DNA from: an uncultured Actinomycetes bacterium
Lineage (GTDB): Bacteria; Actinomycetota; UBA4738; HRBIN12
DNA: 64,000 nt
Assembly: GCA_963778545.1 (NCBI GenBank)
Contig: CAVZUW010000003.1
Span: 26,365-90,364, forward strand
Direction of reading: 5' to 3'
Shown: in pieces, positions 35,877 through 60,147 of the stretch
Layout: every line of letters begins with the position of its first letter
How positions within the stretch are numbered: the stretch's first letter is position 1
The notes under the pieces: generated by a model
Database searches by the model: none
Told to the model about the DNA's origin: nothing
The model's input: the letters and a program-made list of their open reading frames with translations, nothing else
Made by a program: the position numbers and the translations under genes

Positions 35877-38597
35877 CTAGCCACCGGGTGCCTGGTCGAC
35901 CCGGACGTGATCCAGGTTCATCGTGAAGGTCTTGGAAGCGTTGTCACCGATCTGGACCCATCCGATCGGGGTGGTGCCCGTGTTCGCGGACCAGGCGTTC
36001 ACGATGCGGACGCCGTCCCGGTACAGGTCCCAGGTCGTGGCCGACCCGACCGTGCCGCACAGCTCCACGGAGTGCCACCCCGAGCCGAGCGCCACGCCGG
36101 AGTTGAGCTGGACGCCCGAGACGTCCGAGCGCAGGGTCAGCGTGTTGGTGGAAGAGACGAAGGCCTTGATGATGGGCCCGTTCGACGCCGTGCGGAGTCG
36201 GAACAGGTCGACGTTGTTGCCCGATGCCAGGTTGACGCTCGCACTCAGGCAGGCCTGCGGGTAGGTCTGCGCGAGCGTCTTGTTCGCGAACGCGCTCTGG
36301 TTGACCACCTGAGCCCGCGCCGAGGGTGCCGACGGGCTTCCGGCGCCCGCATCGATCGTGAGCCGGGTCGTCGAGCTCCAGCCGGCGAGGTTGGCGAAAT
36401 CATCGGCGAAGATCGCTCCGGCCGCCGAGGACACGGTGATCGGCGCTGACTCGGGGCTGGAAACGCTCGCGTTGTTCATCGCGTCGACCGCATCGACCGC
36501 GTAGGTATGCATCGAGCCGGCCGCCAACCCCGTGTCGGTGAACGACGTGGCGGTCGTGGAGCCGATGGAGGACCCACCACCATCGCGGTAGACGCGGTAG
36601 GTGATCGGCGGCGAGTCGTCCGTGGAGCCGGCCCAGGCGATCTGGATCGTGCCTGCGGAGGGACTCGTTCCGGTGGGCGTCCCCGGGACGGTCGGAGGCA
36701 CGAAATCCGGCGTGCTGCTCTCGCCGGGTGCCTGGTCGACCCGGACGTGATCCAGGTTCATCGTGAAGGTCTTGGAAGCGTTGTCACCGATCTGGACCCA
36801 TCCGATCGGGGTGGTGCCCGTGTTCGCGGACCAGGCGTTCACGATGCGGACGCCGTCCCGGTACAGGTCCCAGGTCGTGGCCGACCCGACCGTGCCGCAC
36901 AGCTCCACGGAGTGCCACCCCGAGCCGAGCGCCACGCCGGAGTTGAGCTGGACGCCCGAGACGTCCGAGCGCAGGGTCAGCGTGTTGGTGGAAGAGACGA
37001 AGGCCTTGATGATGGGCCCGTTCGACGCCGTGCGGAGTCGGAACAGGTCGACGTTGTTGCCCGATGCCAGGTTGACGCTCGCACTCAGGCAGGCCTGCGG
37101 GTAGGTCTGCGCGAGCGTCTTGTTCGCGAACGCGCTCTGGTTGACCACCTGAGCCCGCGCCGAGGGTGCCGACGGGCTTCCGGCGCCCGCATCGATCGTG
37201 AGCCGGGTCGTCGAGCTCCAGCCGGCGAGGTTGGCGAAATCATCGGCGAAGATCGCTCCGGCCGCCGAGGACACGGTGATCGGCGCGGACGCAGGACTCG
37301 GTGGCCCCGTGTTCACCTCGTCGCTCGCGACGACCACGTAGGTGTGCGTGCTCGCGGCCGCGAGCCCCGTGTCGGTGAAGGACACGTTCGGGCCGGCACT
37401 CACGACGCTCCCCACCGGTGCCGGACCGCCGTCGCGATAGACGCGATAGGTGAGAGTCGCGTCGTCGGGGTCGGTCGCCGCCGACCAGGTAAGGGCGATC
37501 GCCCCCGGAGCGCCCGCTGCGCCGCTCGGCTGTCCGGGCGCCGTGGGCGGAGTGGTGTCATCGGGCGGCGAGGCCACAGCGGTGAAGTACGGGTCGGCCC
37601 CCATCGCGGTGAAGGCCGTCAATGAGGAGGCGCTGGAGTCGATCAGGAAGTTGCACCCGGGGTTCGCCCAATCGACGGTGTTGAAGTAGAGCGCGGCGCG
37701 GAACGATTCCCATCCGGGTGACTTGAGCAGGGCCCGGGCGTCGTTGAACCACTGCGCCTTGCGGCCGGGCACCGATGGATCCTCCACGGTGCCGAACTCG
37801 GGAAGCATCAGAGGGATCGTGGGATGGTTCTGACCGAACAACCGGAGAGGGTTCACGATATCGAAGAACGATTTCCAGGGACCGTTCGGGAAGCCTGCCT
37901 TGCAGTTATGCCAGTTGTACGCGTCTGCTCCGATCGCGTCGACGTACCCATCGCCCGGATACCAGTTCGCCGCGGCGTGCTCGCCTGTGATCCAGAAGGC
38001 TTCATCCGTGAGCGTCCAGACGAACTGCGCATTGACCGTCCCTTCGGCCTCGAAGACGTTCCACACCCGCCGCCAGGCATCGATGTAGTCGGTGCTCGTC
38101 CCGAGATCGTCGTTCCGCATCATCTCCGGTTCGGGTGAGAACAAGAAGTAGAGCGGCGCGCCGTAGTCGCGGATACGTCGCGCCCAGCTCACGAGGTCGT
38201 TGTAGACGGGTGATCCCACTGGTGCGTCGGCGATGGTCCTCCACAGCACGGGCGTGCCGTTCCCGTATCGGGTGGCTAGCGAGAGGAAGAGCGTGTGGTT
38301 CGTATCGCGCATCCACAGATCCAATGGCGTGGGGAATGCCGAGTCCCAACGGTCGAACTCCCGTATGGCCGCCAGCGGACGACCGATGTCCGCCTCGATG
38401 TTCCCGATCTCCTGCTGCGTGACGGGCACGGGATGGGCGCCGAGGATGATGGTCGGGAGCGCGGGGTCGGCGGACGCGGGCAACGGAGCGCCGACCACCC
38501 CTGACGCACATGCCACGGCCACAAGGAGCACGAACACCACGGGCGCGAAGAGGCCGGTGGGCTCGCCTCGACGTCGCCGCTGAGGTGTGAGCGTCAT
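35877..38597 (-). CDS. Secreted multidomain glycoside hydrolase, GH26-like (mannanase family) catalytic domain + [FN3 + ~185-aa jelly-roll/ConA-like module] x2
   Basis: 906 aa from ATG 38597 (MTLTPQRRRRGEPTGLFAPVVFVLLVAVACASG is a signal peptide). GH26-like region WRRVWNVF...WTLTDE...WYPGDGYVDAIGADAYNW...EFG. Two FN3-like segments and a duplicated C-terminal module. Confidence 0.8.
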   Translation of the reverse strand: MTLTPQRRRRGEPTGLFAPVVFVLLVAVACASGVVGAPLPASADPALPTIILGAHPVPVTQQEIGNIEADIGRPLAAIREFDRWDSAFPTPLDLWMRDTNHTLFLSLATRYGNGTPVLWRTIADAPVGSPVYNDLVSWARRIRDYGAPLYFLFSPEPEMMRNDDLGTSTDYIDAWRRVWNVFEAEGTVNAQFVWTLTDEAFWITGEHAAANWYPGDGYVDAIGADAYNWHNCKAGFPNGPWKSFFDIVNPLRLFGQNHPTIPLMLPEFGTVEDPSVPGRKAQWFNDARALLKSPGWESFRAALYFNTVDWANPGCNFLIDSSASSLTAFTAMGADPYFTAVASPPDDTTPPTAPGQPSGAAGAPGAIALTWSAATDPDDATLTYRVYRDGGPAPVGSVVSAGPNVSFTDTGLAAASTHTYVVVASDEVNTGPPSPASAPITVSSAAGAIFADDFANLAGWSSTTRLTIDAGAGSPSAPSARAQVVNQSAFANKTLAQTYPQACLSASVNLASGNNVDLFRLRTASNGPIIKAFVSSTNTLTLRSDVSGVQLNSGVALGSGWHSVELCGTVGSATTWDLYRDGVRIVNAWSANTGTTPIGWVQIGDNASKTFTMNLDHVRVDQAPGESSTPDFVPPTVPGTPTGTSPSAGTIQIAWAGSTDDSPPITYRVYRDGGGSSIGSTTATSFTDTGLAAGSMHTYAVDAVDAMNNASVSSPESAPITVSSAAGAIFADDFANLAGWSSTTRLTIDAGAGSPSAPSARAQVVNQSAFANKTLAQTYPQACLSASVNLASGNNVDLFRLRTASNGPIIKAFVSSTNTLTLRSDVSGVQLNSGVALGSGWHSVELCGTVGSATTWDLYRDGVRIVNAWSANTGTTPIGWVQIGDNASKTFTMNLDHVRVDQAPGG
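35881..36437. repeat. Copy 1 of a 557-bp perfect direct repeat (part of an 840-bp tandem duplication inside the GH26 gene)
   Basis: 35881-36437 is identical to 36721-37277 (period 840 bp). The identical 113-aa and 180-aa antisense ORFs in the track arise from this. Confidence 0.85.
36721..37277. repeat. Copy 2 of the 557-bp perfect direct repeat
   Basis: See copy 1. The flanking ~280 bp (FN3 segments) have diverged. Confidence 0.85.
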
Positions 38598-38797: not shown

Positions 38798-38841
38798 GTG
38801 CGCCGGGGAGGACTCGAACCTCCGACCCGCTGCTTAGAAGG
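38798..38841. repeat. 44-bp direct repeat identical to the 3' part of tRNA-Arg(TCT) (49833-49876); candidate attR of an integrated element
   Basis: GTGCGCCGGGGAGGACTCGAACCTCCGACCCGCTGCTTAGAAGG occurs at both positions. It covers the acceptor 3' strand, T-arm, variable loop and the 3' anticodon stem/loop. Confidence 0.75.
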
Positions 38842-38999
38842 TATGCGGGAGCGGAACGACGTGCGAACATGCCTGGACGCACCGTATCGAGCGAGCGGAA
38901 TGCGCTTAGTTAGCGGGTCGGGTCACGGTGCATTGGGCTGTCCGAGCCGCCGCGTACGGTACCTGTGCTTCCCCCCGACTACGTCCGAGCGAGGTGGTC

Positions 39000-39242
39000 A
39001 TGACGTTGCGACCGTTGGCCCCGCGATGCCAGCGGGTAGACGATGACATCCAATGCAGGTTCGATGCCGTGCGGCGGGTGCTCATCGTCGGCGGTGACCC
39101 GCCGGACCCCGATCAGTCGGGCTTCGCTGGGACGATCTACACGGTCCAGGTCTGCAAGCAGCACGACCCCGACCCGCGCCAGTCGATGCCGATCCCCCGT
39201 CCTCCGGGTTCCGTGCCGATCGGGGAACGTCCGCACTTGTAG
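39000..39242 (+). CDS. Hypothetical small protein
   Basis: ORF 38928-39242 (internal ATG 39000). No recognisable domain. Confidence 0.3.
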   Translation: MTLRPLAPRCQRVDDDIQCRFDAVRRVLIVGGDPPDPDQSGFAGTIYTVQVCKQHDPDPRQSMPIPRPPGSVPIGERPHL

Positions 39243-39302
39243 GGCGCAGCGAAATCGTGGCCGGAGGCCTAATTCCCCATCAGCGGGAGTAGGCTCCTAG
39301 CC

Positions 39303-39668
39303 GTGGACCATGCCCCCATTCCTCCAGAGCAGTACCGGGCGGGTGTACCACTTCTCTTTCTCGAACTGTTGGCGAAGTCCCCGCGCAACGGCGGAGAGGA
39401 AGCGGTGCAGAAGTACTACGAACTTCGTGATGCGAGAATGATGACACTGGCGAAAGGGACCGCCGCGGCGGCGGTCTCCATCTTGACTGCTTGGTTCATA
39501 CCCTTCCTCAAGAATGAGTACGAGGACGCCCCGGAGTGGTTGATCTTGTGGCCCCCTCTTGCGTTGCTCGTCGTATTGGTGATTGCAGGGGGACTGGCTT
39601 TCATCAACCTAAACAGGATTCACAAATCGCTCATCCGAGCGATGTCTCTCTTGGAGCTCTACCGATGA
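39303..39668 (+). CDS. Hypothetical 2-TM membrane protein in a lower-GC segment
   Basis: 121 aa with two C-terminal TM helices (AAAAVSILTAWFIPFL; LILWPPLALLVVLVIAGGLAFI). AT-richer codons (aaa, ttt, att) are atypical for this genome. Confidence 0.55.
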   Translation: MDHAPIPPEQYRAGVPLLFLELLAKSPRNGGEEAVQKYYELRDARMMTLAKGTAAAAVSILTAWFIPFLKNEYEDAPEWLILWPPLALLVVLVIAGGLAFINLNRIHKSLIRAMSLLELYR

Positions 39669-40177
39669 GGATCGTCGCCGGATCCACAGCGTTTCTTACT
39701 GCCTTGTCCCTTCTAGCTACTGGACTCGCCGTGGCCCTTGCTTTGGTGTGGATCATTCAGCAATCGCGAATGAAATCGGCCAGGGAGAGGGTGGCGGAGT
39801 CCCCGGTCTGGGATCAAGTCGTAGGGTTCTGGACCGAGTCTAAGACGCAGTCAGAGGGCGCCTTTATCAGTCAAGTCCAAGAAAGAATCTCGACGCTTGG
39901 GCAGATATCCGTCAGGTTCGGACGGGTTCTCGACGGGGAGGAGGTCGCCTCTCGGCTTCGCGAGGCGCTCCCGGACGCGAGACAGTTGGAGCAACGACTT
40001 CGCAAGGAACTAGAGAAACAGGGCAGGGTCGTTGGTGCAATCAGTCACTTCCCGATAGAGACGTTGGATGGGAATCAGGAGGCGCTGCTCGTGAGCTACC
40101 TCAGAGAGTGGAAAACGCTAAGGGATCTGGAGGATCGCCTAAGCCGAGAGATATCCCGCCTCTCATTCGCTCTCTGA
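39665..40177 (+). CDS. Hypothetical membrane-anchored coiled-coil protein (N-terminal TM helix)
   Basis: ATGA overlap with the previous gene. MRIVAGSTAFLTALSLLATGLAVALALVWII TM helix, then a charged helical region (RLREALPDARQLEQRLRKELEKQ). Confidence 0.55.
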   Translation: MRIVAGSTAFLTALSLLATGLAVALALVWIIQQSRMKSARERVAESPVWDQVVGFWTESKTQSEGAFISQVQERISTLGQISVRFGRVLDGEEVASRLREALPDARQLEQRLRKELEKQGRVVGAISHFPIETLDGNQEALLVSYLREWKTLRDLEDRLSREISRLSFAL

Positions 40178-40245
40178 CTCGCCGGGGATCACGTCCTCGG
40201 TTGGACGCTTGGGTCCCCCCGCGCCCCGTGCCGAATTCCTCCACG

Positions 40246-40390
40246 TCCCTCATGCTCCCCCGACTTCGAACGAGCCGACAGGATCGGCGAGTTCTGGAGT
40301 TACCGCAGAGCCGCACCTTCGCCGAGTTACTGATCGACTGCGAAAAGAGGATCAGGTGCTGCGAGCGGTGCTGGTCGGAATGTTGCGAGA
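40246..40390. repeat. Copy 1 of a ~145-bp imperfect direct repeat in a 770-bp non-coding stretch
   Basis: Roughly 85% identical to 40643-40790. Shared core ...GGATCGGCGAGTTCTGGAG.TACC..CAGAGCCGCACCTTCGCCGAG...TGATCGACTGCGA... Confidence 0.5.
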
Positions 40391-40642
40391 GGGCCAGCGC
40401 TGGGGTCCCTCCTAGGAACACCCAACCGGCGAGAGTACGTCGATTGAGCGATGCGCACCCTCCTCGGCGTTCCTACGATTCTGATGCGGTTCAGGGACAC
40501 CGGGCTTGCTGTGGTCGGGCCACCGCAAGGGCCTCCCCTCAGGACCATCGAACGGGTCCGCTCGGTGTCCCTGACCGACCACAAGATCACCGAGCCATCG
40601 GGCTTCCCCGCCCCGGTCGGAAGCGAGGGACGGGGCCGGTGT

Positions 40643-40790
40643 TCTCAATGCTCCCCGACTTCGAAACGCCCCACCGGATCGGCGAGTTCTGGAGCTACCC
40701 ACAGAGCCGCACCTTCGCCGAGCTGTTGATCGACTGCGAGGAGGATCGGACGCTCCGTGCGGTGTTGGTCGGATGCTCCGGGAGACTCAG
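40643..40790. repeat. Copy 2 of the ~145-bp imperfect direct repeat
   Basis: See copy 1. The indels between copies do not preserve a reading frame, which argues against protein coding. Confidence 0.5.
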
Positions 40791-40945
40791 CAGGGGCGCT
40801 AGGTGCGGTCGGGAACCGCCCCGCACGGCGAGCAGTCGGAGAAGTTCGCATTCTGTAGGGATTCTGGGGAGTAGACCTTCGGCGGGGCGGCTCCCCAACT
40901 CGTCCGACTGTGTGGCCGGCTTCCAGATGCCACGATTCGCGGGTT

Positions 40946-41287
40946 ATGGCGATCATCGAGATGATCGGAAGGCCCGACTCACGCCCATACGTCGTGGTTC
41001 GGGGACGGTTGACCGACGAAGACGAGGGACGCCTGCTCGCACGTGTCCTGACTTCGCGCCATGTCGATGTCGTGGTCGATCTATGTGAGATCGACGAGGT
41101 GACGGACGAGGGTTGCACCGCGATCAAGAACGTGGCCGAGCACATGGATAAGGATCAGACGATGGTGGTGGTGTACGTCCCCGACCGGGAGGCGACTCGA
41201 CCCCTCGAGCGATCCGGGATTACGGATGATGGCCGGATCGTGCTCGTCGCAGCCTCGCCGTCTCGTCGTATCAGTCTCGAGGTCTGA
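40946..41287 (+). CDS. STAS-domain protein (anti-sigma-factor antagonist-like)
   Basis: 113 aa from ATG 40946. Beta-alpha pattern MAIIEMIGRPDSRPYVVVRGRL...VVVDLCEIDEVTDEGCTAI typical of SpoIIAA/STAS. Confidence 0.6.
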   Translation: MAIIEMIGRPDSRPYVVVRGRLTDEDEGRLLARVLTSRHVDVVVDLCEIDEVTDEGCTAIKNVAEHMDKDQTMVVVYVPDREATRPLERSGITDDGRIVLVAASPSRRISLEV

Positions 41288-41471
41288 CACCCTGGGACAC
41301 CGCGAGCCCGCACCGTACGGCGAGCCGGCGGTCTGAGTCCGCACCGCGAGCCGTCATACACGGGCTGTAGAGCGCTCAGGCGACTCGACCGGCGGCCAAC
41401 CGCGCACGCAGAGTTCGGCGCGAGGAGGTGGGCTATGCATTCGAAGGTCTGCACAGTCTTCCGGACCTAGA

Positions 41472-41723
41472 GTGGCCTCCATGGGTCGCCGCGAGCACGA
41501 CATCTACGAGCATGCCGTCGGCGCGGTGATCGCGCAGGCCGCTGAGGAGAAGCGCGACATCTACGAGCACGCCGTCCTCGCGGTGATCGCGCAGGCCGCC
41601 AGGGAGACCGAGAGGGCCGGCGGGGAGCGCGAGCCTCGTCCGGGCGGAGGAATGAGGGGCATCTGGATCGGGCTCGCCCTATCTCTCCCTATCTGGGGCG
41701 TGATCATCTGGTGGCTGTCATGA
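41472..41723 (+). CDS. Small membrane protein with an internal 20-aa tandem repeat
   Basis: 83 aa. DIYEHAVGAVIAQAAEEKR / DIYEHAVLAVIAQAARETER (60-bp tandem duplication in the DNA). C-terminal TM helix IWIGLALSLPIWGVIIWWL. Confidence 0.45.
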   Translation: MASMGRREHDIYEHAVGAVIAQAAEEKRDIYEHAVLAVIAQAARETERAGGEREPRPGGGMRGIWIGLALSLPIWGVIIWWLS

Positions 41724-41875
41724 GGAACGAATCGTTGAAGTCACCAAGGAGGCGGCGCTCCACTGTCGGAGACCGCCTCGGCGTCACGCCCCGGCACTGG
41801 GCGCACCGGGAGCCCACGCCGCACGGCGAGCCGGGCTGGTGGTCGGAGGACGCAGCGCAGTAGCGTTGCCGCTAA

Positions 41876-42463
41876 GTGCAGAAGCCCGCGTTCATCCTGG
41901 GGGCGCTCGCCCTGGCCGCGATGCTGGCCGCCTGCGGTGGCAGCGGGCCGACCACCGAGAAGGATGGGGAGGGAGCGGTCTGGTCCACCCCCCACGCCTC
42001 CTGGGGCGTCAACCACGCGGGGGTGAAGGTCGGCAGCACATGGTCGGCAGGAGGCGTCCTGCTGTGCAGGACGGGCGAGGCCGTGCCAACGATCGCATCG
42101 GTCGTCCCGGTCCAGGTGTCCGGGGACGTGGAACTCGACAACATCGGGGTCCGCACCGCGAAGAGACCGGGGCCGAGTGGTCCCGCACCCACGGACACCT
42201 ACCTCGTCGGGACGATGCACGGCAAGCCCCCGGGCCTGCAAGCTCCGAGAGGCTACGTCGTGCCGAACGACTGCGGCGATGGTCCCGACGGCAGCCCGGT
42301 CGGCGATCCGATCGGCGAGGTCGTCGTCACGATGACCAGGACGGGGGCCTCCGGCGGCGCGCTGGACGGTCTGCGGGTCGCCTACACCGTCGATGACGAC
42401 GACGAGCAGCACGTCTTCGACATCCACTTCCACTTCGGGTTCAACAAGGCTCAGAGCCGGTAG
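41876..42463 (+). CDS. Lipoprotein, hypothetical
   Basis: GTG start. Signal peptide with lipobox LAACGG. 195 aa, Gly/Pro-rich, no known domain. Confidence 0.6.
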   Translation: MQKPAFILGALALAAMLAACGGSGPTTEKDGEGAVWSTPHASWGVNHAGVKVGSTWSAGGVLLCRTGEAVPTIASVVPVQVSGDVELDNIGVRTAKRPGPSGPAPTDTYLVGTMHGKPPGLQAPRGYVVPNDCGDGPDGSPVGDPIGEVVVTMTRTGASGGALDGLRVAYTVDDDDEQHVFDIHFHFGFNKAQSR

Positions 42464-42520
42464 CGGTGGAAGGGCCGGGCTCGCAGCGGACCCGACCCCT
42501 CCACCCGGGAGACCGTCCCA

Positions 42521-42820
42521 TCACGTCAGCCTGACCGTCGGCGGGTAGTCGCGGGACAGCTCGACGTCGAGGAGGTCCTCCTCCAATAGCGCTGCGGCCA
42601 TCCGGCCAGCCTCGGTGTCGACCAACCGGATCCTCATCTCGGCCGGCGTGAGCCGCTCGGCACAACCGACGATGTGCCGCCCGGCCCTCCAACGGACGCC
42701 GTCGTATACGTCCTGCTCGAGCATGAGCCTGAGCCGCCTTCCCATAGGCAGGCTGCCGAGCCCTGGCTCCAGCTGCGCCGCGATGACCGCCTCCGCCGTC
42801 GTCGGTTGTGCCGTCCTCAT
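42521..42820 (-). CDS. Hypothetical protein (element-borne)
   Basis: 99-aa ORF. Start overlaps the stop of the upstream gene. Confidence 0.4.
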   Translation of the reverse strand: MRTAQPTTAEAVIAAQLEPGLGSLPMGRRLRLMLEQDVYDGVRWRAGRHIVGCAERLTPAEMRIRLVDTEAGRMAAALLEEDLLDVELSRDYPPTVRLT

Positions 42821-43303
42821 CGCTCCTTCTTCCGCTCCCGGATCGCGGCGACCTCCGCGGCCTGTTGCCGGGCTCCTGCCTCGAGCTCCTCCTCCAGGAA
42901 TCGCGGCTTGGGCCGCTGACTGAACTCCTCTGCGGGCGACGCGTAGGCGGGATCGCCGGCCATGAGCGACTCGAACGGCGTCGACCCCTCCTGCGCCGGG
43001 ACGCCGGCGGCGATGGGCACCACCACAGCAGCGGCGGCACTCTCAGCCGCGATCCGGGCCAACCGCTCACGCTCTTCACGCAGCAGATCGCCGAGCACCT
43101 CGCGGCGCACGCATCGCCGACCCAGGTCGTCCTCGACGATCTCGACGCCGCGCTCGAGCAAGGACGAGCTCCCAGCCGACGATGGGTTCGGTGAGGTCGA
43201 GCGACAGATGCCCGATCGGGACCAGCTCGGCCTCGTTCAACCACTGCTTCGCGGCTCTGCGGGCGATCTCGGCGCCCTCGTTCGGTTCGATGTTCTCGTT
43301 CAT
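42817..43303 (-). CDS. Hypothetical phage-related protein with a frameshift near 43150-43165
   Basis: ORF 43076-43303 (MNENIEPNEGAEIARRAAKQWLNEAELVPIGHLSLDLTEPIVGWELVL) continues in ORF 42817-43161 (LERGVEIVEDDLGRR...). Confidence 0.4.
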
Positions 43304-43399
43304 CCTTCACTCCTTCCCTTGTAGACGTGGATCCTCGGGGTTGGCGCATGTTCGACCCTGGTCACACCGTCAAAGGCGATCATCGCCGCGAGCGCCGCC

Positions 43400-44742
43400 G
43401 CGATCGGTGCGCCCTGGGCAACGTCCAGGTCCGGGCGCGGTCCAGACGGTCCCGGCGATCAACCCAGGTTGGCGACGTGCCGCCGCAGCACGCGATCACC
43501 GTCGTGTGACAGGCGCTGCTCGAGGACGGCGTCGAAGAACTGCTGACCACTGCAACGCGAGGCGCTGCGGGCTCCTGGGGACCTTGGTGATCGGCAGGCC
43601 TTCCTCGGCGAGCATCCAGCAGCACCCACGACCAGTCGTGCCTCCGAACACAGGAACTCGTGGACGTTGTAGCGGGCCCAGACGGCCCGGAGCTCGTCGG
43701 CGACGTCGGAGGGATCGACGCGCTCGGCCTCCTCCCAGACCTGATCGGGAAGACGTGCGGCTCGTCGAGCGTGCAGCCGACGATCGCGACGGTGTCGCGA
43801 GCGCGAGCGGCGACGAACGCGACGACGACCTTGGTTCCCTCGGGGATGGCGCGGGCGACCGGCGGCGGCCTCCCACACCCCGTCTGCGAACGCGACGTCG
43901 CGCCCGGTCGTCCATTGGTTCAGGTGCAGCCGTCTGAACTGGTTCTCCGGGAGACGCCGAGCCATATCGACGAGGCGGGCCTGGACCAGGAACGGGTCCG
44001 GCACACGAAGGGCGGGGTTCGCGAGCCGCCACGTCCTCGGCGAGCGGTAGTCGGCCTCGGAGTCTTGGGGAAGACCGACCCACCGATACAGGAACCGCGG
44101 GTCCTTGCCCTCCTCGCCCTCGCGGACGAGATCACCCAGCAGCGAGCCGCGGTCGTAGCCGGCGGTGCGAGATCCCGAGCAGCAGCGGCTCGGTCCGCGC
44201 GCCGAACCCGGACTCGAGGACGTCCCACAACTCGCGCGACGGCTGGACGTGGACCTCGTCGAAGATGACGGCGCTCGGGCGCAGGCCGTGCTTGAGCGGC
44301 GCGTCGGCGCTCATCACCCGCCAGACCAGTCGGTGCCGGGGTCCTCGATCGCGTCGCGGAAGATCCGAAGCGTCGCCGACAGCCGCGGGGAGAACTCGAC
44401 CATCCGCTTGCCGGCGTCGAAGACGATGCGCGCCTGCGGCTTGTCGCCGGCGACCGAGATCACCTCGGCGCCGTAGGTCCCATCGGCGACGAGCATCTTG
44501 GTCCCGACCGCGGCCGCGATCTCCGACTTGCCGTTCTTCCGCGGCAGGCCCCACAGCGCGCGGGTGTAGCACGCGGTGGCCTGCGTGACCTCCCGGAACA
44601 ACTCGGTCAGGAAGTCGCGCTGGAACGCGCGGAGCTTGAACGGCCGGCCCGCCCACCGGTCGGAGGTGTGCCGGAGCTCGCCCTCGATGAAGCGGACCGG
44701 ATCGACGCGGACGAGGCCCCGAGCGCGAGCGCGCTCGGCCAT
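43400..44742 (-). CDS. Terminase large subunit, interrupted by at least two frameshifts. 3' end approximate
   Basis: Walker A GLPRKNGKS in ORF 44314-44742. ...AVIFDEVHVQPSRELWDVLESGFGARTEPLLLGIS in ORF 44132-44656. Nuclease region PENQFRRLHLNQWTTGRDVAFADGVWEAA, ELRAVWARYNVHEF and FFDAVLEQRLSHDGDRVLRRHVANLG in ORFs 43459-44083. Confidence 0.7.
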
Positions 44743-44859
44743 CAGCGTCGCCTTCCGATACTTCTCGGCGAGCTCCTGCTGGAGCGACTTACCTCGGAGC
44801 TGCGACAGGCCGATATGCGTCAGAGCGCGACGGGCTCCCGCCGAACTCGACCGCCAGAC

Positions 44860-45210
44860 GAGCCACCAGGGCGACGGCCTGGCGACCAGGCTCGGAAGGC
44901 CGGGTTCAGGATCGCCCCCCGGCTGCCGGTGACGCAGAGCTCCCCTTCCTCGAGCTCTGCGCGGCGCGCTCGGCCATGCCGACGGCGACGGCGAACTGAC
45001 GGAGCAGCGGCAGGTGGATCGACTGGAGCGCCCCGGCCTCGGCCAGCGGCTCGGCGACCTGGGTCCAGGCCTCCTGCTCGACCGGGCCGAGGTCCGCCGG
45101 CGGCTCCGGGACGGCCTCCAGCGGGGCGAAGCGGATCGGCTGGGGCAGGGCGCGCTTGCCGGGGTTGCCTCGGCGCTTGGCGATCTCGACGGGGACGGGT
45201 CTACGGGGCA
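44860..45210 (-). CDS. Terminase small subunit, P27 family, C-terminal part frameshifted. Coordinates approximate
   Basis: MPRRPVPVEIAKRRGNPGKRALPQPIRFAPLEAVPEPPADLGPVEQEAWTQVAEPLAEAGALQSIHLPLLRQFAVAVGMAERA matches the P27 small terminase family. The C-terminus continues in another frame (...GAILNPAFRAWSPGRRPGG...). Confidence 0.55.
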
Positions 45211-45212
45211 TC

Positions 45213-45475
45213 GACGTCCTCCCAGTCCGGGCCACCTTCCCAGCCAGGACCGCCGGCCAGGAAGCGACGCAGGACCTCGCGGATCTCCTCTGCTCGCGCC
45301 GGGGGGGCCACATCACGGCCTGCATGTAGAGCTGGTCGTCTGGCGTTAGGGCGGTGGAGAGCATGAACACGCCGGTGAGCTCGTCGCCGGGGCGGGTCAG
45401 GACCTTCCGGGCGATCTCGGCGACCTCGTTCAGCGCCTCATCGCTCGGAAGCGTCACCTTCGGTCGGTTCTTCAC
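45213..45475 (-). CDS. Hypothetical small phage protein with a frameshift in a C7/G7 run at 45302-45308
   Basis: VKNRPKVTLPSDEALNEVAEIARKVLTRPGDELTGVFMLSTALTPDDQLYMQAV, then after a 1-nt shift ...PPARAEEIREVLRRFLAGGPGWEGGPDWEDVDAP*. Confidence 0.35.
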
Positions 45476-45610
45476 GTCATCCTCTCCTTCTGGGCCGTTC
45501 TGGGGCGTTCTGGGGCCTGGTACAAGCCCTGGTACAAGCCGGCGGGAAGTGCGGCGGCGCACACCGGCCAAGATGTGGCGGTACTAGCAGCGCGGCTCAA
45601 AGAATCGGTC

Positions 45611-45957
45611 TTCATCGCCGACCTCGCTTCCGCTTCTTCCCGATCTCCGAGTCGCGGTGGTTCTTCTCGTTCGCGTGCATCGCGCACAACGACTGAAGGT
45701 TCTCCTCGTTGTCGTCCTCCACCGAACGCCTTGGCCTGGATGTGGTCGACCGTGGTCGCGACCGCGCCACAGACTCGACAGCCGGGCTCGAGCCGGAGGT
45801 GGGCGGCCCGGATCTTGGGCCAACGTGAGCCGTAGTCCCGCCCTGCGGTGACCCACCCTCCGCCTCGACGGGTGTGGTCGGGGCACCTGCCGCCGTACCT
45901 GGTGCGGTTGGGGCAGCCTGGCTCGGCGCACTGAACGGGCAGCAGGTTCAGGCTCAT
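45611..45957 (-). CDS. HNH endonuclease with a +1 frameshift at the GGTGGAGGA run (~45715-45725)
   Basis: MSLNLLPVQCAEPGCPNRTRYGGRCPDHTRRGGGW...CRVCGAVATTVDHIQAKAFGG, then the shifted frame gives EDDNEENLQSLCAMHANEKNHRDSEIGKKRKRGRR*, completing the HNH motif (DH...N...LC..CHN.K). Confidence 0.7.
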
Positions 45958-46119
45958 GCCGTCCCGCCGTTCAGCACGTGCTCGACCACGATCGCGGTCC
46001 ACGTAGCACGGCCAGGTGGAGGCTCCACGCCGAGGGTGTTCAGCTCGAACGCGGCGGCCGTCTTCGGGCTGCCTGCGCCGGCGTGTGCAACCAGGGTCTC
46101 GCGGACGGTCCGGGCGATC

Positions 46120-48172
46120 TCACCCAGGGGATACAGTGCCGAAGACCCTGGCCCATCCTGGCCCACCGCCTCTGACCTGCGGGAATCGCTCTGAGCCACC
46201 CTGGCCCGGATCCTGGCCCAGCGTGGCCTGGGCCGGGATGGGCCGGGGTCCGTCCAACTGTTCTTCCAGGAGATCGTCATCGTCGGGGTCGGCTGGGCCT
46301 CGGAGGCCGATGCCCTCGATGTATCGGTCTCGGATCTCGCTCGCAGGGGTCCGGTGCCGAACCTCACGCAGGCCGGGGTAGGCGGCGTGCAAGTCTCGGA
46401 ACAGCACCGCCTTGGTGCCGGCGCGGTCCTTGCCCTCGTCCTGGCACCAGTCCTTCCACGCCGTCCAGAGCTCGTCCTTGCGAACCTCATGGACCGGCAC
46501 CGACGACGCAACGGTCCCGTACGAACGCGGAGACCGGGGAAGCGAGATCCTGGAGGCGCTGGAGGGCGGCCTCGGGACGACTGCGGGCATCTCGAAGTAG
46601 CCGCGAGCGTTCAGGCGATCCAGACCGTCGAGGGACCAGTTGAAGATGCCGGGTGCCTCGGCCAGCAAGGCATCGGTGAGCCCTGGGTCCTCCTGTCCGA
46701 AGAAGCTGTTCGTGAGCACCAGGACGATGAACCGGGACGCGAGGGCGCCGGATGCGTCGGTGAACCTGGGGACCTCGTTCGTCAGGACCATGAACCGCGT
46801 CGGGAGTCTGCCCGTCCAGGGGTCGCGGTACTTCCGGTCGATCGTCAGCGAGTCCTCGCCGGAGATCGACAGCAGCCGCTCGACCGCGACCGTCCCGTCC
46901 GCCCGCGTTGATAGGCGTGCATCGGAGATCAGCCCGAGCGGTCTTCCGATGAGCGGGGACAGGCCGAAGTTGGTCGTGAGCCCCGCGAGGGTCGGCGCGG
47001 CGACGTTGTGGGCGCCCAGCAGACCGGTCAGGACGCGACCGATCGTGCCCTTGCCCGAGCGGAGCGGCCCGACGAGCATGAAGATCTTCTGCAGGTCCGT
47101 GCCGCCTCCCAGGATGTAGCCCATCACCTCGGCCAGCGCGTCACGGGACTGCTCGTCCTCGGGCCACAACTCCTCGAGGAACCGGAGCCACCGGGCCGGG
47201 CGTCGGCGCCGTGCGGTCGTACTCGAACGGCAGGACATGCGGGGCGAAGTACGCGGGGGTGTGCGGGATCAGCTTGCGCGTCGAGATGGTCAGCAGCCCG
47301 TTCGCGAGTGGCACAACCTGACCCTGGTCCTCCCCCACGATCCACGCCGGCGTGGTGATGTGCATGTCCAGGTGGGTGTTGGCCCGGATGGCGTCGATGA
47401 GGTCGGCGATCTTGTAGCGGGTCGGCTCGAAGTCGACGAGCTCCACGTCGTCCTTGACCTTCTTCCAGTACTTGGCGCCGTCCAGCCACCGGTACAGGTC
47501 GCTCTCGAGACGGCGTTCGTCGAACTCGGGCCACGAGGTGCCGTCGTAGCGGTGGAACGTGTTGCGGTGATGGCGGACGAGCGACTCGACGACGTCATCG
47601 GGGTAGTGGTGCTCCAGGAACATCTTCCCGACGGCGTAGGGGTTCGACGGCGCGGGGACGGTCAGCGTCTCGACCGGCGCCAGCTTGGGCAGGTCCCGCG
47701 TGAACTCGTCGTGGAGGTCTTCGGCCGTCGGGTCCGTCACGCCGGCCTCCTCAGGTCGTGGCCGAGCTCGCGCCAGCGGTCCAGGTCGGTCGTCGAAGGC
47801 AGAGGGCGTCGGCATTCCGGGGCAGCGATCGTGGCCGCGACGCAGGAGCCGGCGGTTCGCGTCGATAACGTCACGCGGTACGCGCTGGTCGCCCTCGAAC
47901 AGGTGGCGGCAGCCCCGCCAGATCGCGGTCTCGAGGAACGCCGCGTTCTCCGAGCGGCGAGTTCGGGCCATCATCTCGAGCAGCGCCTTGCACTTCGCTT
48001 CGACGGTCAGCTCGGGATCGTCGGCGACGAGACGGGCGGCGGTCTCCCAGCGCCTGATCTCGGCGAGGACTCGTTCGGTCGCTTCGTCGGTGTAGGATTC
48101 GGGCTGGCGGTACGTCTTGGTAGTGGCGTTGGCCCCGGAGCCCTCCGGGGCCGTTCGCTGTCCAGGGTTCAT
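46120..48172 (-). CDS. Phage/plasmid primase, P4/D5 family (primase C-terminal domain plus D5-type NTPase), frameshift in 47141-47238
   Basis: ORF 47141-48172 (...NGLLTISTRKLIPHTPAYFAPHVLPFEYDRTAPTP) and ORF 46120-47238 (RWLRFLEELWPEDEQSRDALAEVMGYILGGGTDLQKIFMLVGPLRSGKGT...) together make the TIGR01613-like domain and a Walker A motif. Confidence 0.8.
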
Positions 48173-48420
48173 CCCGAACCACCCGACCTGCGAGCAGCCC
48201 GGACCTTGGCGCTCTTGTAGGCTAGGCCGAGCATGTAGGCCTTGCGGGCGTGCTCGGCACGACGTGCGCGCTCGGCGGGATCCAGCACTCCGTCGGGATC
48301 GACCTGACGCTCGAACCGCTCGGCGTTGGCCTTGCGGGCTGCCTCCGTCGTCTTACGCGCATCGTGCATCGAATGCGCGGCGACTTGGTGGCGAAGGGAC
48401 TTCTCAACGACTGAACCCAC
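48169..48420 (-). CDS. Hypothetical small basic protein (element-borne)
   Basis: 83-aa ORF reads protein-like (AERARRAEHARKAYMLGLAYKSAKVRAAR). No known domain. Confidence 0.4.
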   Translation of the reverse strand: MGSVVEKSLRHQVAAHSMHDARKTTEAARKANAERFERQVDPDGVLDPAERARRAEHARKAYMLGLAYKSAKVRAARRSGGSG

Positions 48421-48559
48421 GGCCCACCTCCTCGGTGGTCACCGTGGGTCCCTGGTCCCACGACACCCGGCGTCTGCCGGAGAGCCGATATCGAGGGTGA
48501 TTCTAGGGGTCCGGCGTACGACGTGCAACGACGGCGTCGCTGACAGGACTTGCCCGTCC

Positions 48560-48797
48560 CCGGTGTCCGCCGACGGAAGTGGACGGCCACGCTACCGTCG
48601 CGTTGTGCCGTCTCGAACTCGGTCTTCTCGATCGCCACCACACCGTGCTTCGGACACATCGACACGACGGAGTACTCGCCCTCCAGCACGATGTCGGCCG
48701 CGCTTCGGACGCCGACCCACCGCTCCCATGTTCCGGGTCTCAGGCGCCGGCCACAGATCTTCCCGCGACCGTCAGAGATGCCACACAGCAGCTTCAC
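48560..48797 (-). CDS. Putative small Cys-rich (zinc-finger-like) protein, translationally coupled to the integrase. 3' end uncertain
   Basis: GTG at 48797 overlaps the integrase stop (GTGA). VKLLCGISDGRGKICGRRLRPGTWERWVGVRSAADIVLEGEYSVVSMCPKHGVVAIEKTEFETAQRDGSVAVHF. Downstream the frame degenerates to Arg/Pro-rich junk. Confidence 0.3.
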
Positions 48798-49738
48798 AGC
48801 CGATCCCCCGGCGCGGTCCGTCGATGGGCGTCGTCGAGAGCGCGTTCGGCGGCGACGCACGAGCCGTAGCGCGACAGCATCGAGCGGCTGCGCCAACCGG
48901 CGAGGGCCATCAGGTTCTCGCCCTCGACGCCGTCGGCCATCCTGTCGTGGGCGAAGGTGTGGCGGAACCGGTGCAGGTTGATGCGCTCGTCGATCCCGGC
49001 GTCCCTGGCCCGCTTGCGGACGATCTGGGCGATGCCGTTGTCGGTGAGCGGTCCCGCGAGACCGAGCCACAGGTTCGGCAAGTGCGCAGCGCGGTGTCCG
49101 GCGCGGGCGCGCAGGTAGCGGTCGAGCGCCTGGGCGCACTTGTGGCCGAAGGCGACGGTGCGGATGCGCCGACCCTTGCCGGTCACGGTGGCCTGTCGGA
49201 GCCGGAGGTCGATGTCGTCCGTGGACAGGTTCGTCAGCTCGGCACGCCGGCAGCCGGTGTCCACGAACATGCGGATGATCGCCAGGTCTCGCCGGTCGGC
49301 GAAGGCCGTCCCCGAACACGCCTTGATGAGCGCGGCGAGCTGGTCGTCGGCGATCACCGGGACGGGCTGCTCGGGGACGATCGGCGGGTGCATGTTCACC
49401 ATCGGGGAGACGCTGATCTCGCCGTCGGAGACGGCCCACCGGAAGAACTGTTGGAGCCCCCGATAGCGGATGTGCACCGAGGTCGGACTCACGCGCTTGA
49501 GCTCGGCGGCAACGAACGCCTCGACGTGTTCCCGCGTGATCGCGTCCACGCGGGTCGGCATACCGGAGCGCTCGAGGAACGCGGCGAACAACTCGACGGC
49601 GTCTAAGTAGGTGCTCGTTGTACGGGGCGACAGGTTGCGCGCCGCGAGCGCGATCTCGAACGACTGCGCGAGCCGACGGACGTCACCGAGGTCGGATGCG
49701 TCACGCCGGCGTGACGCCTTGGCGGTCCTGGTCCCCAT
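48794..49738 (-). CDS. Tyrosine-type site-specific integrase/recombinase
   Basis: 314 aa. N-terminal SAM-like domain. C-terminal catalytic motifs R...(HRFRHTFAHD)...RY with ...LSRYG. Located 95 nt from the tRNA-Arg 3' end. Confidence 0.9.
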   Translation of the reverse strand: MGTRTAKASRRRDASDLGDVRRLAQSFEIALAARNLSPRTTSTYLDAVELFAAFLERSGMPTRVDAITREHVEAFVAAELKRVSPTSVHIRYRGLQQFFRWAVSDGEISVSPMVNMHPPIVPEQPVPVIADDQLAALIKACSGTAFADRRDLAIIRMFVDTGCRRAELTNLSTDDIDLRLRQATVTGKGRRIRTVAFGHKCAQALDRYLRARAGHRAAHLPNLWLGLAGPLTDNGIAQIVRKRARDAGIDERINLHRFRHTFAHDRMADGVEGENLMALAGWRSRSMLSRYGSCVAAERALDDAHRRTAPGDRL

Positions 49739-49833
49739 ATCCTCCTGCCTGTCCAGTTAGCGGCTCACTATGCGGTGTGCATGAGGTGAGCGTCAATCGA
49801 GGGAGGCTGGATATGACCTCTGACCTGGGGTTG

Positions 49834-49908
49834 TGCGCCGGGGAGGACTCGAACCTCCGACCCGCTGCTTAGAAGGCAGCCGCTCTGTCCAGACTGAGCT
49901 ACCGGCGC
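49834..49908 (-). tRNA. tRNA-Arg (anticodon TCT)
   Basis: 75-nt cloverleaf read on the minus strand: GCGCCGG-TA-GCTC/AGTCTGGACA/GAGC-G-GCTGC/CTTCTAA/GCAGC-GGGTC-GGAGG/TTCGAGT/CCTCC-CCGGCGC-A. Confidence 0.9.
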
Positions 49909-50951: not shown

Positions 50952-52452
50952 TCAGAACATGACCGACGCCGTGTTGGAGCAGACGGTCGTGTTGTACTCG
51001 CAGACCTTGTAGACGATCGTCCCGCCGTTGGTCATGACCACGTCCGTGAACGTGCCCGTGTTGGCCGCCGCCCCGAAGTTCACGCCGTCGCGGTACAGCG
51101 ACAGGTACTGCGACGTCGCGCCCGTCCACGTGAGTGTCACGAGCTTCACGGTCGCGAAGAACGTCTGCCCGCTCGCGGTCAGCGTGAACGTCCCCGGTTC
51201 GGGCGGTGGAGGCGGTGGAGGCGGTGGAGGCGGCGGAGGTGGCGGGGGCGGCGGGGGTGACGCCGTGAAGCCCGAGAACAGCAGGCGGTTCGGCGAGCCA
51301 GAGCCGGGGCTCTTCACGACCCCCTGCGTCGCGCTCGAGGTGATCGTCGAGGCGACCTGGGCGGGGGTGGCGGTCGGGTTCGTCTCGAGGTAGGTGGCGA
51401 CCACGCCCGCGACGTGTGGCGTCGCCATCGACGTGCCGCTGATCGTGTTCGTGGCGGTGTCGCCCGAGCCCCATGCGGAGGTGATGTTCACGCCCGGCGC
51501 GAACACGTCCACGCAGGTACCGATGTTCGCCCACGACGCCTTCGTGTCGGTCGAATCGACGGCGCTCGACGGTGAGCGCCGCCGCGACCCTGGCCGGCGA
51601 GCTGTTGCACGCGTTCGCGGCGAACCCGAAGATGTTGCCGTTCCCGGCGGCGATCGCGTACGTCACACCGTCGCTGATCGACCTCGAGACGGCCTGGTCC
51701 ATCGCCGTCGACGCCGAGCCGCCCAGGCTCATGTTCGCGACGGCGGGCTCGCCGGGGTCGTGGTCCTGGGTCACCCAGTCGATGCCCGCGACGACCTGGG
51801 ACGTGCTGCCCGAACCCTGGCAGTTCAGGACCCGGACGGCGACGAGGTTCACCTGCTTGGCGACGCCGTACGTCGAACCGCCGATCGTCCCGGCGACGTG
51901 CGTGCCGTGGCCGTGGCAGTCATCGGCGCTCCCGCCGTCGATCGCGTCGAACCCGCTCGTCGCGCGCCCGCCGAACTCCTGGTGCGAGAACCGGATCCCG
52001 GTGTCGATCACGTACGCGGTCACGCCGCTCCCGGTCGCCGTGTACGTGTACGCGTTGTCGACCGGCAGCGAACGCTGGTCGATACGGTCGAGGCCCCAGG
52101 TCGCCGGCGTCTGCGTCTGGGACAGGCGCACCACCGCGTCCTGCTCGACGTACGCGACGCGTGGGTCGCGACTCGTCCGGAGCGCCTGCGCCCGAGACAT
52201 GTCGGCGACGAACCCGTTCAACGCGGACGAGAACACGCGCTGCACGCTGGCTCCGTACGCACGCTGCATACCGGTCGCGACGAACCCGGGTGCCCGAGGT
52301 ACCGGGGATCGCAGCACGACGATGTAGCGGCCGGGGATCGCGTGACGGTGGAGGATCAAGCGGCCGGGACGGGCTGACGCCGGTCCGGCTCCCCACACCA
52401 GCAGGCCCGCGATCAGGGACAGGACGGTGAAGGTTCGGAGATGGCGACGCAT
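50952..52452 (-). CDS. Secreted subtilisin-like serine protease (S8) with a poly-Pro linker and C-terminal beta-domain; +1 frameshift near 51553-51570
   Basis: Signal peptide. Catalytic D (VIDTGI), H (HGHGTHVAG) in ORF 50842-52452. The S-containing segment GTSMATPHVAG is in ORF 50952-51512. The shift-restored junction reads ...[31 protein letters not shown]. 20x Pro linker. Confidence 0.85.
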
Positions 52453-58119: not shown

Positions 58120-58170
58120 GGATCCCCTAACCGGTCAGGCCTGGACGCCTGAACGGTCTTTGACCGGTCG

Positions 58171-58241
<71 letters not shown>

Positions 58242-59292: not shown

Positions 59293-60147
59293 GTGAACGT
59301 TCCCTTCCGGCTCGTCGACGTGTTCGCGCCGCGACCGCTCGCCGGGAACCAGCTCTGCGTCGTGCCGGGACCCGCCGACCTGGAGGACGCGACGATGCAG
59401 GCCATCGCGAGGGAGATCGGCTTCTCCGAGACGACGTTCGTGACCGAGAGCGGTGACGACCGCTACGCGATGCGGATCTTCACGCCGGCATCGGAGCTCC
59501 CGTTCGCGGGGCACCCGACGCTCGGGACGGCGTTCGTGTTGGTGAGCGAGGGGCGTGTGAGCTCGCCCGCGACGCAGGTCGTGGCCGCGGGCGAGATCCC
59601 GGTCGAGGTGGATCTCGAAGCCGGCACCGCGTGGATGACGCAGCTCCCGCCAGCGTTCGGGCCCGTCTTCGAGGATCGCGAGCTGATCGCCCGCGCGATC
59701 GGTCTCGAGGCGAGTGATCTCGACCCCGACCTCCCGGTCCGGACCGTCTCGACCGGTCTGCCACCGACGATCGTGCCGCTCCGCGACGCCGAGACGCTCC
59801 GGCGCGCCGTCCGGAACGCCGCGGTGGTGGCGGAGGCGGTCGCGGCCTCGGGTGGGGAGGACCTGTACCTGTTCGCGGTCACCGGGGAGGGCGTCACCGC
59901 GCGGATGTTCGATGCGGAGCTCGGCGTCGGGGAAGACCCGGCGACGGGGTCGGCGGCGGGTGCGCTCGGCGCCTACCTGGCCGAGCACGATCTGGCCGGC
60001 ATGCCGGGCTCGGTGCTGATCCGCCAGGGCGGGCAGGTGGGGCGGCCGAGCGAGCTGTTCGTCGAGACCAGCAGCGAGGACGGGGCATGGCGCGTCCGGG
60101 TCGGGGGAGGCGTCCACGTGGTCGGCCGGGGGACGTTCGAGCTCTGA
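59293..60147 (+). CDS. PhzF family phenazine-biosynthesis-like isomerase
   Basis: GTG 59293. VDVFAPRPLAGNQLCVV and ETTFV motifs. 284 aa. Confidence 0.8.
   Translation: MNVPFRLVDVFAPRPLAGNQLCVVPGPADLEDATMQAIAREIGFSETTFVTESGDDRYAMRIFTPASELPFAGHPTLGTAFVLVSEGRVSSPATQVVAAGEIPVEVDLEAGTAWMTQLPPAFGPVFEDRELIARAIGLEASDLDPDLPVRTVSTGLPPTIVPLRDAETLRRAVRNAAVVAEAVAASGGEDLYLFAVTGEGVTARMFDAELGVGEDPATGSAAGALGAYLAEHDLAGMPGSVLIRQGGQVGRPSELFVETSSEDGAWRVRVGGGVHVVGRGTFEL

Follow-up and report, generated by a model that had tools for sequence, protein, structure and literature searches.

The window analysed here is a continuous stretch of 64,000 nucleotides (64 kb) from an uncultured Actinomycetes bacterium (contig CAVZUW010000003.1), and it contains, at 38798-49908, an island of about 11 kb inserted at the tRNA-Arg(TCT) gene. 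The island encodes its own primase-helicase and a complete packaging set of the phiC31/HK97 style, made of an HNH endonuclease, a P27-type small terminase subunit (TerS) and a large terminase subunit (TerL). Capsid, portal, protease, tail and lysis genes were not found in it by Pfam, by PHROGs, by tblastx against 82 viral loci or in one structure model.

The integrated island and its genes

ARAGORN and Rfam agree on the position of tRNA-Arg(TCT), at 49833-49908 on the minus strand, and Rfam returned nothing but this tRNA on the island. An exact 44-bp direct repeat (38798-38841 = 49833-49876), the only such pair within the window, spans the region from the anticodon loop to the 3' end of the tRNA; its copies are 11,035 bp apart, which is the length of the element, and by our own arithmetic about 1e-17 exact pairs of 44-mers would be expected by chance in 64 kb. 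The integrase gene lies 95 bp from attR, the intact tRNA copy. A tyrosine integrase inserted the element between the anticodon loop and the 3' end of tRNA-Arg(TCT), regenerating the tRNA and leaving the 44-bp repeat behind, as had been proposed in a sequence-only reading of this DNA from the repeat and from the neighbouring integrase.

The genome has a GC content of about 70%, which makes raw lists of open reading frames (ORFs) noisy. Genes were called from codon-position GC, Viterbi segmentation on codon usage, libraries of hidden Markov models (HMMs) and frameshift-aware alignment of homologous proteins to the DNA. Numbers beginning with L and P are labels for the related loci and proteins used in the comparison. 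The resulting map is as follows.

38798-38841: attL, the 44-bp copy of the 3' part of tRNA-Arg, an exact match to 49833-49876.
39000-39242, plus strand: conserved Cys-containing protein of about 76 amino acids (aa), att-proximal; 86% nucleotide identity to L172 4965-5175, which adjoins the tRNA fragment of L172; no Pfam match.
39303-40177, plus strand: AT-richer cassette (GC 0.57-0.60), cargo, with two ORFs for predicted membrane proteins (hydrophobic stretches); no Pfam, PHROG or PADLOC match.
40174-40400, plus strand: g83 copy 1, a small conserved protein homologous to the 83-aa gene of L172, riddled with indels (five frameshifts in 230 nt).
40648-40800, plus strand: g83 copy 2, C-terminal half only, seen as an internal repeat and by alignment.
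40910-41287, plus strand: 125-aa ORF; no Pfam match at E<0.01 and no sequence relative in the PDB.
41472-41723, plus strand: small membrane protein with a 57-bp tandem repeat (TRF array 41494-41607; ORF translation).
41876-42463, plus strand: predicted lipoprotein of 195 aa, uninterrupted, with signal peptide and Cys lipobox; GC at third codon positions 0.89 (host-like codon bias); no family match.
42521-42820, minus strand: g99, a small conserved protein downstream of g159, aligned to the 84-aa gene of L172; no frameshift seen, no Pfam or PHROG match.
42823-43303, minus strand: g159, family marker, predicted winged helix plus long helix; one frameshift relative to L172 g159.
43312-44742, minus strand: TerL, full length, at least 7 frameshifts; phrog_9, 85% aa identity to P0121/P0122 after correction.
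44749-45211, minus strand: TerS of the P27/Terminase_4 family, 3 frameshifts; phrog_83, 88% identity to L092 TerS.
45216-45475, minus strand: p85, always upstream of TerS, 1 frameshift; 79% identity to an 85-aa ORF of L092.
45488-45540: short direct repeats (10-mer x3, 12-mer x2) just upstream of p85, found by TRF; conserved in L092 and L096.
45540-46002, minus strand: HNH endonuclease, approximate ends, at least 2 frameshifts; phrog_144/589, core aligned to L007 HNH.
45957-47692, minus strand: primase-helicase (D5_N plus DUF5906 P-loop NTPase; Pfam, PHROG), full length, 5 one-base insertions.
47740-48172, minus strand: Zn-ribbon protein of about 145 aa, conserved upstream of the primase, 1 frameshift; 71% identity to a 147-aa protein of L002.
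48199-48381, minus strand: small conserved integrase-proximal protein, no frameshift; 62% identity to an 83-aa protein of L175.
48560-48797, minus strand: small Cys-rich ORF with a GTG start and a GTGA overlap with the integrase stop (translation), 3' end uncertain; coding signal at 48607-48723.
48794-49738, minus strand: tyrosine integrase of 314 aa, intact, of XerC/D-like architecture; Pfam Phage_integrase at 85.9 bits plus Phage_int_SAM_4/1.
49833-49908, minus strand: tRNA-Arg(TCT), whose 3' 44 nt are attR (ARAGORN, Rfam, repeat).

Read from attR, the minus strand carries in order the integrase, the small proteins, the primase-helicase, HNH, p85, TerS, TerL, g159 and g99; the plus-strand genes, from the lipoprotein to the attL-proximal Cys protein, converge on this block. 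The integrase is colinear with a 310-aa relative and, at 50% identity and with no frameshift, with the integrase of L175. After frameshift correction the primase-helicase is 82.7% identical to P0002 over 573 aa and matches phrog_6088 at 149 bits. The window's frameshifted terminase pieces gave nothing with raw Pfam and required PHROGs and frameshift-aware alignment to be recognised, whereas L092 TerS passes the Pfam threshold for Terminase_4 (P27) and L092 TerL (intact, 476 aa) those for TerL_ATPase and TerL_nuclease. The primase, HNH endonuclease and two terminase subunits named in the sequence-only reading, the P27 family of the small one included, are borne out by PHROGs and by these uninterrupted relatives; the small Cys-rich ORF coupled to the integrase is seen in the translation. 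The STAS label that this reading gave to the ORF at 40910-41287 has no support from Pfam or from PDB sequences.

The DNA around the island was compared with the species set by a scan with the full tRNA sequence, and the only other genome with the identical tRNA was L009 (SMAG_U3866), a metagenome-assembled genome of a distant Actinomycetota. In L009 no integrase lies within 2.5 kb of the tRNA 3' end, where ordinary genes are found; synteny is kept on the right, where tRNA-Gly and the gene after it are in place, and the left flank is unrelated. The order tRNA-Arg(TCT), tRNA-Gly(TCC), next gene is common to the window (58170-58241, 59299-60143) and to L009 (6736-6807, 6861-7705), with 8.3 kb between the two tRNAs in the window versus 4.1 kb in L009, and the right flank of the window may hold another insertion. 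On the left, a secreted GH26/FN3 protein is encoded at 35877-38570 on the minus strand; its start lies near 38570 and does not overlap attL. This gene contains a 100% identical duplication of about 570 nt, 840 bp apart (35884-36183 = 36724-37023 and beyond), which doubles a C-terminal module of about 190 aa; it arose either by tandem duplication very recently or as an artefact of the assembly.

A head-less layout in a family of tRNA-associated islands

The searches for virion genes covered the island with several independent tools. The ORFs within 38842-43349 have no Pfam, PHROGs or PADLOC match, and no PHROG or Pfam match to head-tail adaptor or connector genes was found in the island. In tblastx of the island against the 82 viral loci, which come from IMG/VR and were found via TerL or primase, the only matches were TerL, TerS and primase; no match came from megablast when the entire island was compared with 50,697 phage records. 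The largest unassigned ORFs of coding-like composition do not exceed 213 aa, and a 326-aa ORF at 40108-41088 is without match. As a positive control, L010, the best viral relative of TerL (47% identity), shows PHROG matches to a portal, a head-maturation protease and a major head protein following its TerL, and viral relatives of TerL sit in canonical TerS-TerL-portal-protease-capsid modules. The nearest cultured relatives of TerL, at about 35% aa identity, belong to Streptomyces phiC31-like cos phages of about 41 kb (phiC31, phiBT1, TG1). Head genes are absent from every one of the close relatives of TerL (73-91%).

The sequence-only reading had recognised no structural genes, and the above searches uphold it. 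It had named the ORFs at 42521-43303 as the place to look for a capsid, scaffold or portal fold; they are instead conserved genes of the family, one of them a predicted DNA-binding winged helix. In the AlphaFold2 model of this protein, g159, which was built from 39 sequences (pLDDT 82.6), long helices come after a winged helix of beta-alpha-alpha-beta-beta topology, and the fold is unlike that of a capsid, portal or connector protein. Foldseek ranked the DNA-binding domains of RacA, BldC and MerR regulators highest; because all of these matches are sub-threshold (E of 0.15 or worse, probability at most 0.96), the assignment of g159 as a DNA-binding winged helix is tentative. None of the 65 homologues of g159 has a Pfam domain.

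The same head-less arrangement recurs in other loci. In L173, a 48-nt exact repeat of tRNA-Glu(CTC), running from the anticodon loop to the 3' end, has its copies 11,008 bp apart and encloses, in order, an integrase, an HTH_17 protein, a primase, a 290-aa protein, HNH, g159, small ORFs, cargo and g83. In L175, the 5' half of tRNA-Ala(GGC) is repeated exactly over 38 nt; the copies lie 9,409 bp apart and enclose an integrase, an 83-aa protein, a helicase, HNH, g159, small ORFs, a PD40 protein, an extracytoplasmic function (ECF) sigma factor and g83. HNH and g159 are again adjacent in L179. L172, a partial ENA contig that begins inside TerS, has from there on the gene order of the window (TerL, g159, g99, the copies of g83, the terminal Cys protein) and terminates at the 3' fragment of a tRNA other than the window's. 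L172, L173 and L175 are without head genes, and the primase relatives L001-L006 add many small tRNA-associated islands whose integrases and cargo differ. Element sizes cluster at 9.4-11.0 kb.

From this comparison, the conserved core of the family consists of integrase, replicase, the HNH-g159 pair, cargo and g83. The p85-TerS-TerL genes form an accessory module placed between HNH and g159 in a subset of members (the window, L172, L008 and L092-L096/L093/L103). The integrase-primase-HNH-TerS-TerL layout described in the sequence-only reading is thus present in the window, but it does not define the family: L173, L175 and L179 have no terminase and keep the integrase, replicase, HNH and g159.

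These relatives bear directly on the nature of the island. It could be an ordinary prophage from which the head, tail and lysis genes were deleted, its likeness to other loci reflecting the shared ancestry of the remnant. The order HNH-TerS-TerL, which is exactly that of phages of the HK97/phiC31 type, and the atypical composition of the cargo region would be expected from such a history. Yet the head-less layout is found at three or four tRNA genes, with its own att repeats and with different integrases, so that the head-less unit itself must have moved; by our comparison it appears to have done so among at least four tRNA sites, and random prophage decay does not account for a layout that recurs in this way. 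The existence of members that are free of terminase and still have integrase, replicase, HNH and g159, the narrow range of sizes and the lack of any detected portal or capsid trace in the island also speak against deletion, which we consider improbable.

Transfer by conjugation or by another non-phage route is more improbable still. An integrative mobilisable or conjugative element resembling the actinomycete integrative and conjugative elements (AICEs), having captured a terminase module, would likewise present an integrase, a replication protein and cargo at a tRNA, a layout known from AICEs and integrative mobilisable elements, and TerS and TerL are indeed absent from most family members. 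However, no FtsK/TraB, relaxase or type IV secretion system domain was found in the window ORFs scanned or in the precomputed annotations of the relatives (L173-L179), the primase family matches PHROG phage primases, and the core conserves an HNH of phage type beside a predicted DNA-binding protein.

The recurrence of the capsid-less layout at other tRNAs with their own repeats (L173, L175, L172) agrees with the tRNA-integrated, satellite-like island of the sequence-only reading. In our opinion the island is probably an integrated member of a family of tRNA-targeting elements of about 9-11 kb in uncultured soil Actinomycetota that would behave as phage satellites similar to the phage-inducible chromosomal islands (PICIs).

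Several further features of the family deserve mention. The g83 protein, of about 83 aa, has the motif PDFERADRIGEFWSYPQSRTFAELLIDCEED and no Pfam domain, and recurs across unrelated-looking islands of soil Actinomycetota: L001 9650-9813, L002 13861-14031, L007 12904-13003, L093 4082-4140 and 7070-7139, L172 4016-4206, L173 9276-9442 and L175 7380-7564, as well as L103. It often occurs in two copies flanking the cargo, and may act as a regulator or an addiction module, or mark the boundary of a cassette. L175 (149-186, 9558-9595) duplicates the 5' half of its tRNA-Ala and not the 3' half, which places related integrases on opposite sides of the anticodon-loop crossover. An uninterrupted p85-TerS-TerL operon lies beside the gene for an ATP-binding cassette (ABC) substrate-binding protein in L092 (2114-4367), L096 and L093/L103, which are Illumina rhizosphere contigs; such orphan terminase operons come without integrase, primase and HNH. 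We rejected a chromosomal origin for the PD40, ECF-sigma and kinase genes that follow TerL in L093/L103, since the L175 repeats put PD40 and the sigma factor inside the element as cargo. Many contigs with close primase homologues measure 10-12 kb (10,199; 10,616; 10,618; 10,708; 10,777; 10,824; 11,182; 11,707; 11,849), which hints at a discrete element size; a circularity test on related contigs, including L001 (10,616) and L173 (11,707), found no terminal overlaps.

Frameshifts and the state of this copy

Frameshifts, which the sequence-only reading had noticed in the replication and packaging genes, were found in each of these genes that could be mapped. At least 17 one-base frameshifts fall in five island genes (Zn-ribbon 1, primase 5, p85 1, TerS 3, TerL 7), with more in HNH, g159 and g83. 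The mapped positions include 47821 in the Zn-ribbon gene; 47203, 46587, 46571, 46498 and 46194 in the primase; 45306 in p85; 44967, 44882 and 44827 in TerS; and 44327, 44167, 43857, 43738, 43638, 43616 and 43543 in TerL. After correction, the replication and packaging genes are full length and 79-88% identical to their closest relative, with readable catalytic motifs. These shifts may be errors of the assembly; alternatively, this copy may belong to the same family and be truly pseudogenised, a dead satellite or prophage remnant with intact integrase and cargo, in line with the decayed element that had been proposed as an alternative.

The pattern of substitutions argues for errors. At codon positions 1, 2 and 3, TerL has 18/17/47 substitutions specific to the window lineage and the primase has 22/16/45, the same third-position excess as in uninterrupted relatives (L092 TerL 26/15/41, L001 primase 40/42/89). 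Because the lineage-specific substitutions retain the bias of functional relatives, the window lineage appears to have evolved under purifying selection, and neutral decay long enough to produce at least 12 indels should have flattened that bias. The mapped one-base indels comprise 15 insertions versus 4 deletions, and the 12 window-specific indel columns of TerL comprise 9 inserted (two of them adjacent) and 3 deleted, whereas bacterial pseudogenes are deletion-biased, as Mira, Ochman and Moran reportedly found in 2001. Many of the indels are grouped in closely spaced compensating sets. The corrected ORFs contain no true nonsense codon: the sole in-frame TGA, in TerL, was considered as a nonsense substitution and rejected, the DNA alignment showing a compensating indel pair.

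Frameshifts are also seen outside the island. Housekeeping genes of the flanks are frameshifted, with split Pfam domains in pepN (aminopeptidase N, near 12,135), in a subtilase (near 51,560) and in ccmF (near 61,085), so that the assembly is demonstrably error-prone; a Viterbi scan of the flanks (53 kb) gave 6-8 candidate frameshift sites, roughly one every 7-9 kb. Other candidates in the flanks lie at 8907, 18930, 25722 and 63327. The affected segments of the island are those with counterparts at 75-90% identity in other elements of such communities, and the ENA assemblies behind L002 and L172 are numbered in sequence; cross-mapping of related sequences that degraded the long-read consensus or its polishing may fit the local excess. 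On the basis of these alignments, we hold it rather likely that most of the frameshifts are consensus errors of an error-prone metagenome assembly, in which case this copy may well be functional. Its true pseudogenisation, by contrast, seems to us possible though unlikely.

The following observations weigh against a satellite that is still alive, and some of them against a satellite at all. The density of frameshifts in the phage-like genes (primase about 1/350 bp, TerL about 1/120-200 bp) is more than 10-fold above that of the flanks, and the integrase (945 nt) and the lipoprotein gene have none; a uniform error rate cannot explain this contrast, which would follow from genuine decay of this copy. 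Among the close relatives there are obvious remnants, such as L007, with an integrase fragment, TerL and HNH at tRNA-Ala, and L092/L096, with only p85-TerS-TerL directly beside a chromosomal transporter gene; L103 has a TerL frameshift of its own. A strictly syntenic empty site was not found, the one contig scan with the full tRNA having returned L009 alone. No AlpA/HTH_17 regulator was found in the window: it has no HTH_17 or HTH_3 match, and the HTH proteins of L001, L002 and L004 do not align to it; HTH_17 is present in the relative L173. The genes from the integrase through g99 are all co-directional, unlike the divergent layout of classical PICIs.

Comparison with known satellites and a proposed model for packaging

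With these reservations, the element stands close to the PICIs, whose median size is 9.5 kb (PMC10085698). It shares with them a size of about 10 kb (11.0 kb here, within the range of about 8-18 kb), an integrase at one end, a P4/D5-type primase-replicase, TerS, the HNH that some of them have, cargo, and the absence of structural, tail and lysis genes. It differs from them by its TerL, by the lack of a recognised regulator of the AlpA/Stl type and by genes that are co-directional with the integrase. De Sousa et al. use the large terminase as a marker separating the capsid-forming PICIs (cfPICIs) from PICIs (PMC10085698). The window element has the integrase, primase, HNH, TerS and TerL of the cfPICIs in the same order (Alqurainy et al., bioRxiv 10.1101/2022.09.08.507074; PMC10085698). 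By contrast, the major capsid, portal, protease, head-tail adaptor and connector genes that define cfPICIs are missing, and the 159-aa winged-helix protein and cargo follow TerL.

Two other comparisons are instructive. The cos-type Staphylococcus aureus pathogenicity islands of the SaPIbov5 family (PMC5052747, PMC8569155) resemble our element by HNH-dependent cos packaging with an HK97-like helper; SaPIbov5, however, carries the cos of its helper and uses the helper's HNH, TerS and TerL, whereas the window element encodes all three, and a homologue of the Ccm-like capsid protein was not found in it. The Lomovskayavirus phages phiC31, phiBT1 and TG1, the nearest cultured relatives by TerL, share the TerS-TerL type with the element and are complete phages with portal, protease, capsid, tail and lysis genes. 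Our literature search found no satellite combining TerL and HNH without capsid genes.

Phages aside, phiRv1 and phiRv2 of mycobacteria carry a capsid and a prohead protease, unlike the window element. PICI-type elements have been found by SatelliteFinder in Mycobacterium (phiRv1/phiRv2-like) and in Rhodococcus (PMC10085698), so that the statement that such elements are poorly described in high-GC Gram-positives holds only in part. Actinobacterial satellites as such are not new; the variation is the design that bears TerL and lacks the capsid.

In the model we propose for the PICI-like satellite, a helper siphophage would trigger the excision of the element by its integrase, possibly with one of the small proteins as directionality factor, and the excised element would be replicated by its own primase-helicase. 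The HNH-TerS-TerL complex would then recognise a site on the element and package its DNA into procapsids supplied by the helper, which would also provide the tails and the lysis functions. The best candidate for this site is the group of direct repeats at 45488-45540, because HNH-dependent cos phages have the order HNH-(site)-TerS-TerL and the repeats lie between HNH and p85; from their position they may be a cos or TerS-binding site, or else a late operator. These repeats, TTCTGGGGCG x2.9 and CCTGGTACAAGC x2.1, are kept in L092 and L096, although the upstream DNA there is an unrelated chromosomal gene. We further speculate that g159, which is invariably coupled to HNH, may act as a specificity factor that binds DNA, and that the units of 11,035 and 11,008 bp, about a quarter of a genome of phiC31 size, would allow the packaging of multimers.

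A bolder proposal, which we put forward only tentatively and regard as doubtful, is that these elements form a distinct class of actinobacterial satellites with an integrase/replicase/HNH/g159 core. A subset of them would possess a private cos-terminase (HNH, TerS and TerL) and no capsid, and would depend on a phiC31-like helper for empty procapsids and tails only, a strategy intermediate between those of classical PICIs, whose sole terminase subunit is TerS, and cfPICIs, which make a capsid of their own. In such a class, g159 could be a TerS-like packaging-specificity factor and the 11.0-kb unit, which occurs twice, could reflect multimers in a helper head of about 41-44 kb.

Phage satellites shape gene flow and phage defence and, to our knowledge, nearly all known examples come from Proteobacteria and Firmicutes. 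The present case calls for caution, as a mobile element full of frameshifts in a long-read metagenome assembly can give the appearance of decay and yet perhaps be intact. If our interpretation is true, uncultured soil Actinomycetota harbour a recurrent satellite family with a defined core, for which g159, g83 and p85 would serve as markers of further members. It would add to the known hijacking designs one that has its own terminase holoenzyme and no capsid genes, between PICI and cfPICI in current classifications, and it would offer a concrete candidate packaging site together with a candidate helper lineage.

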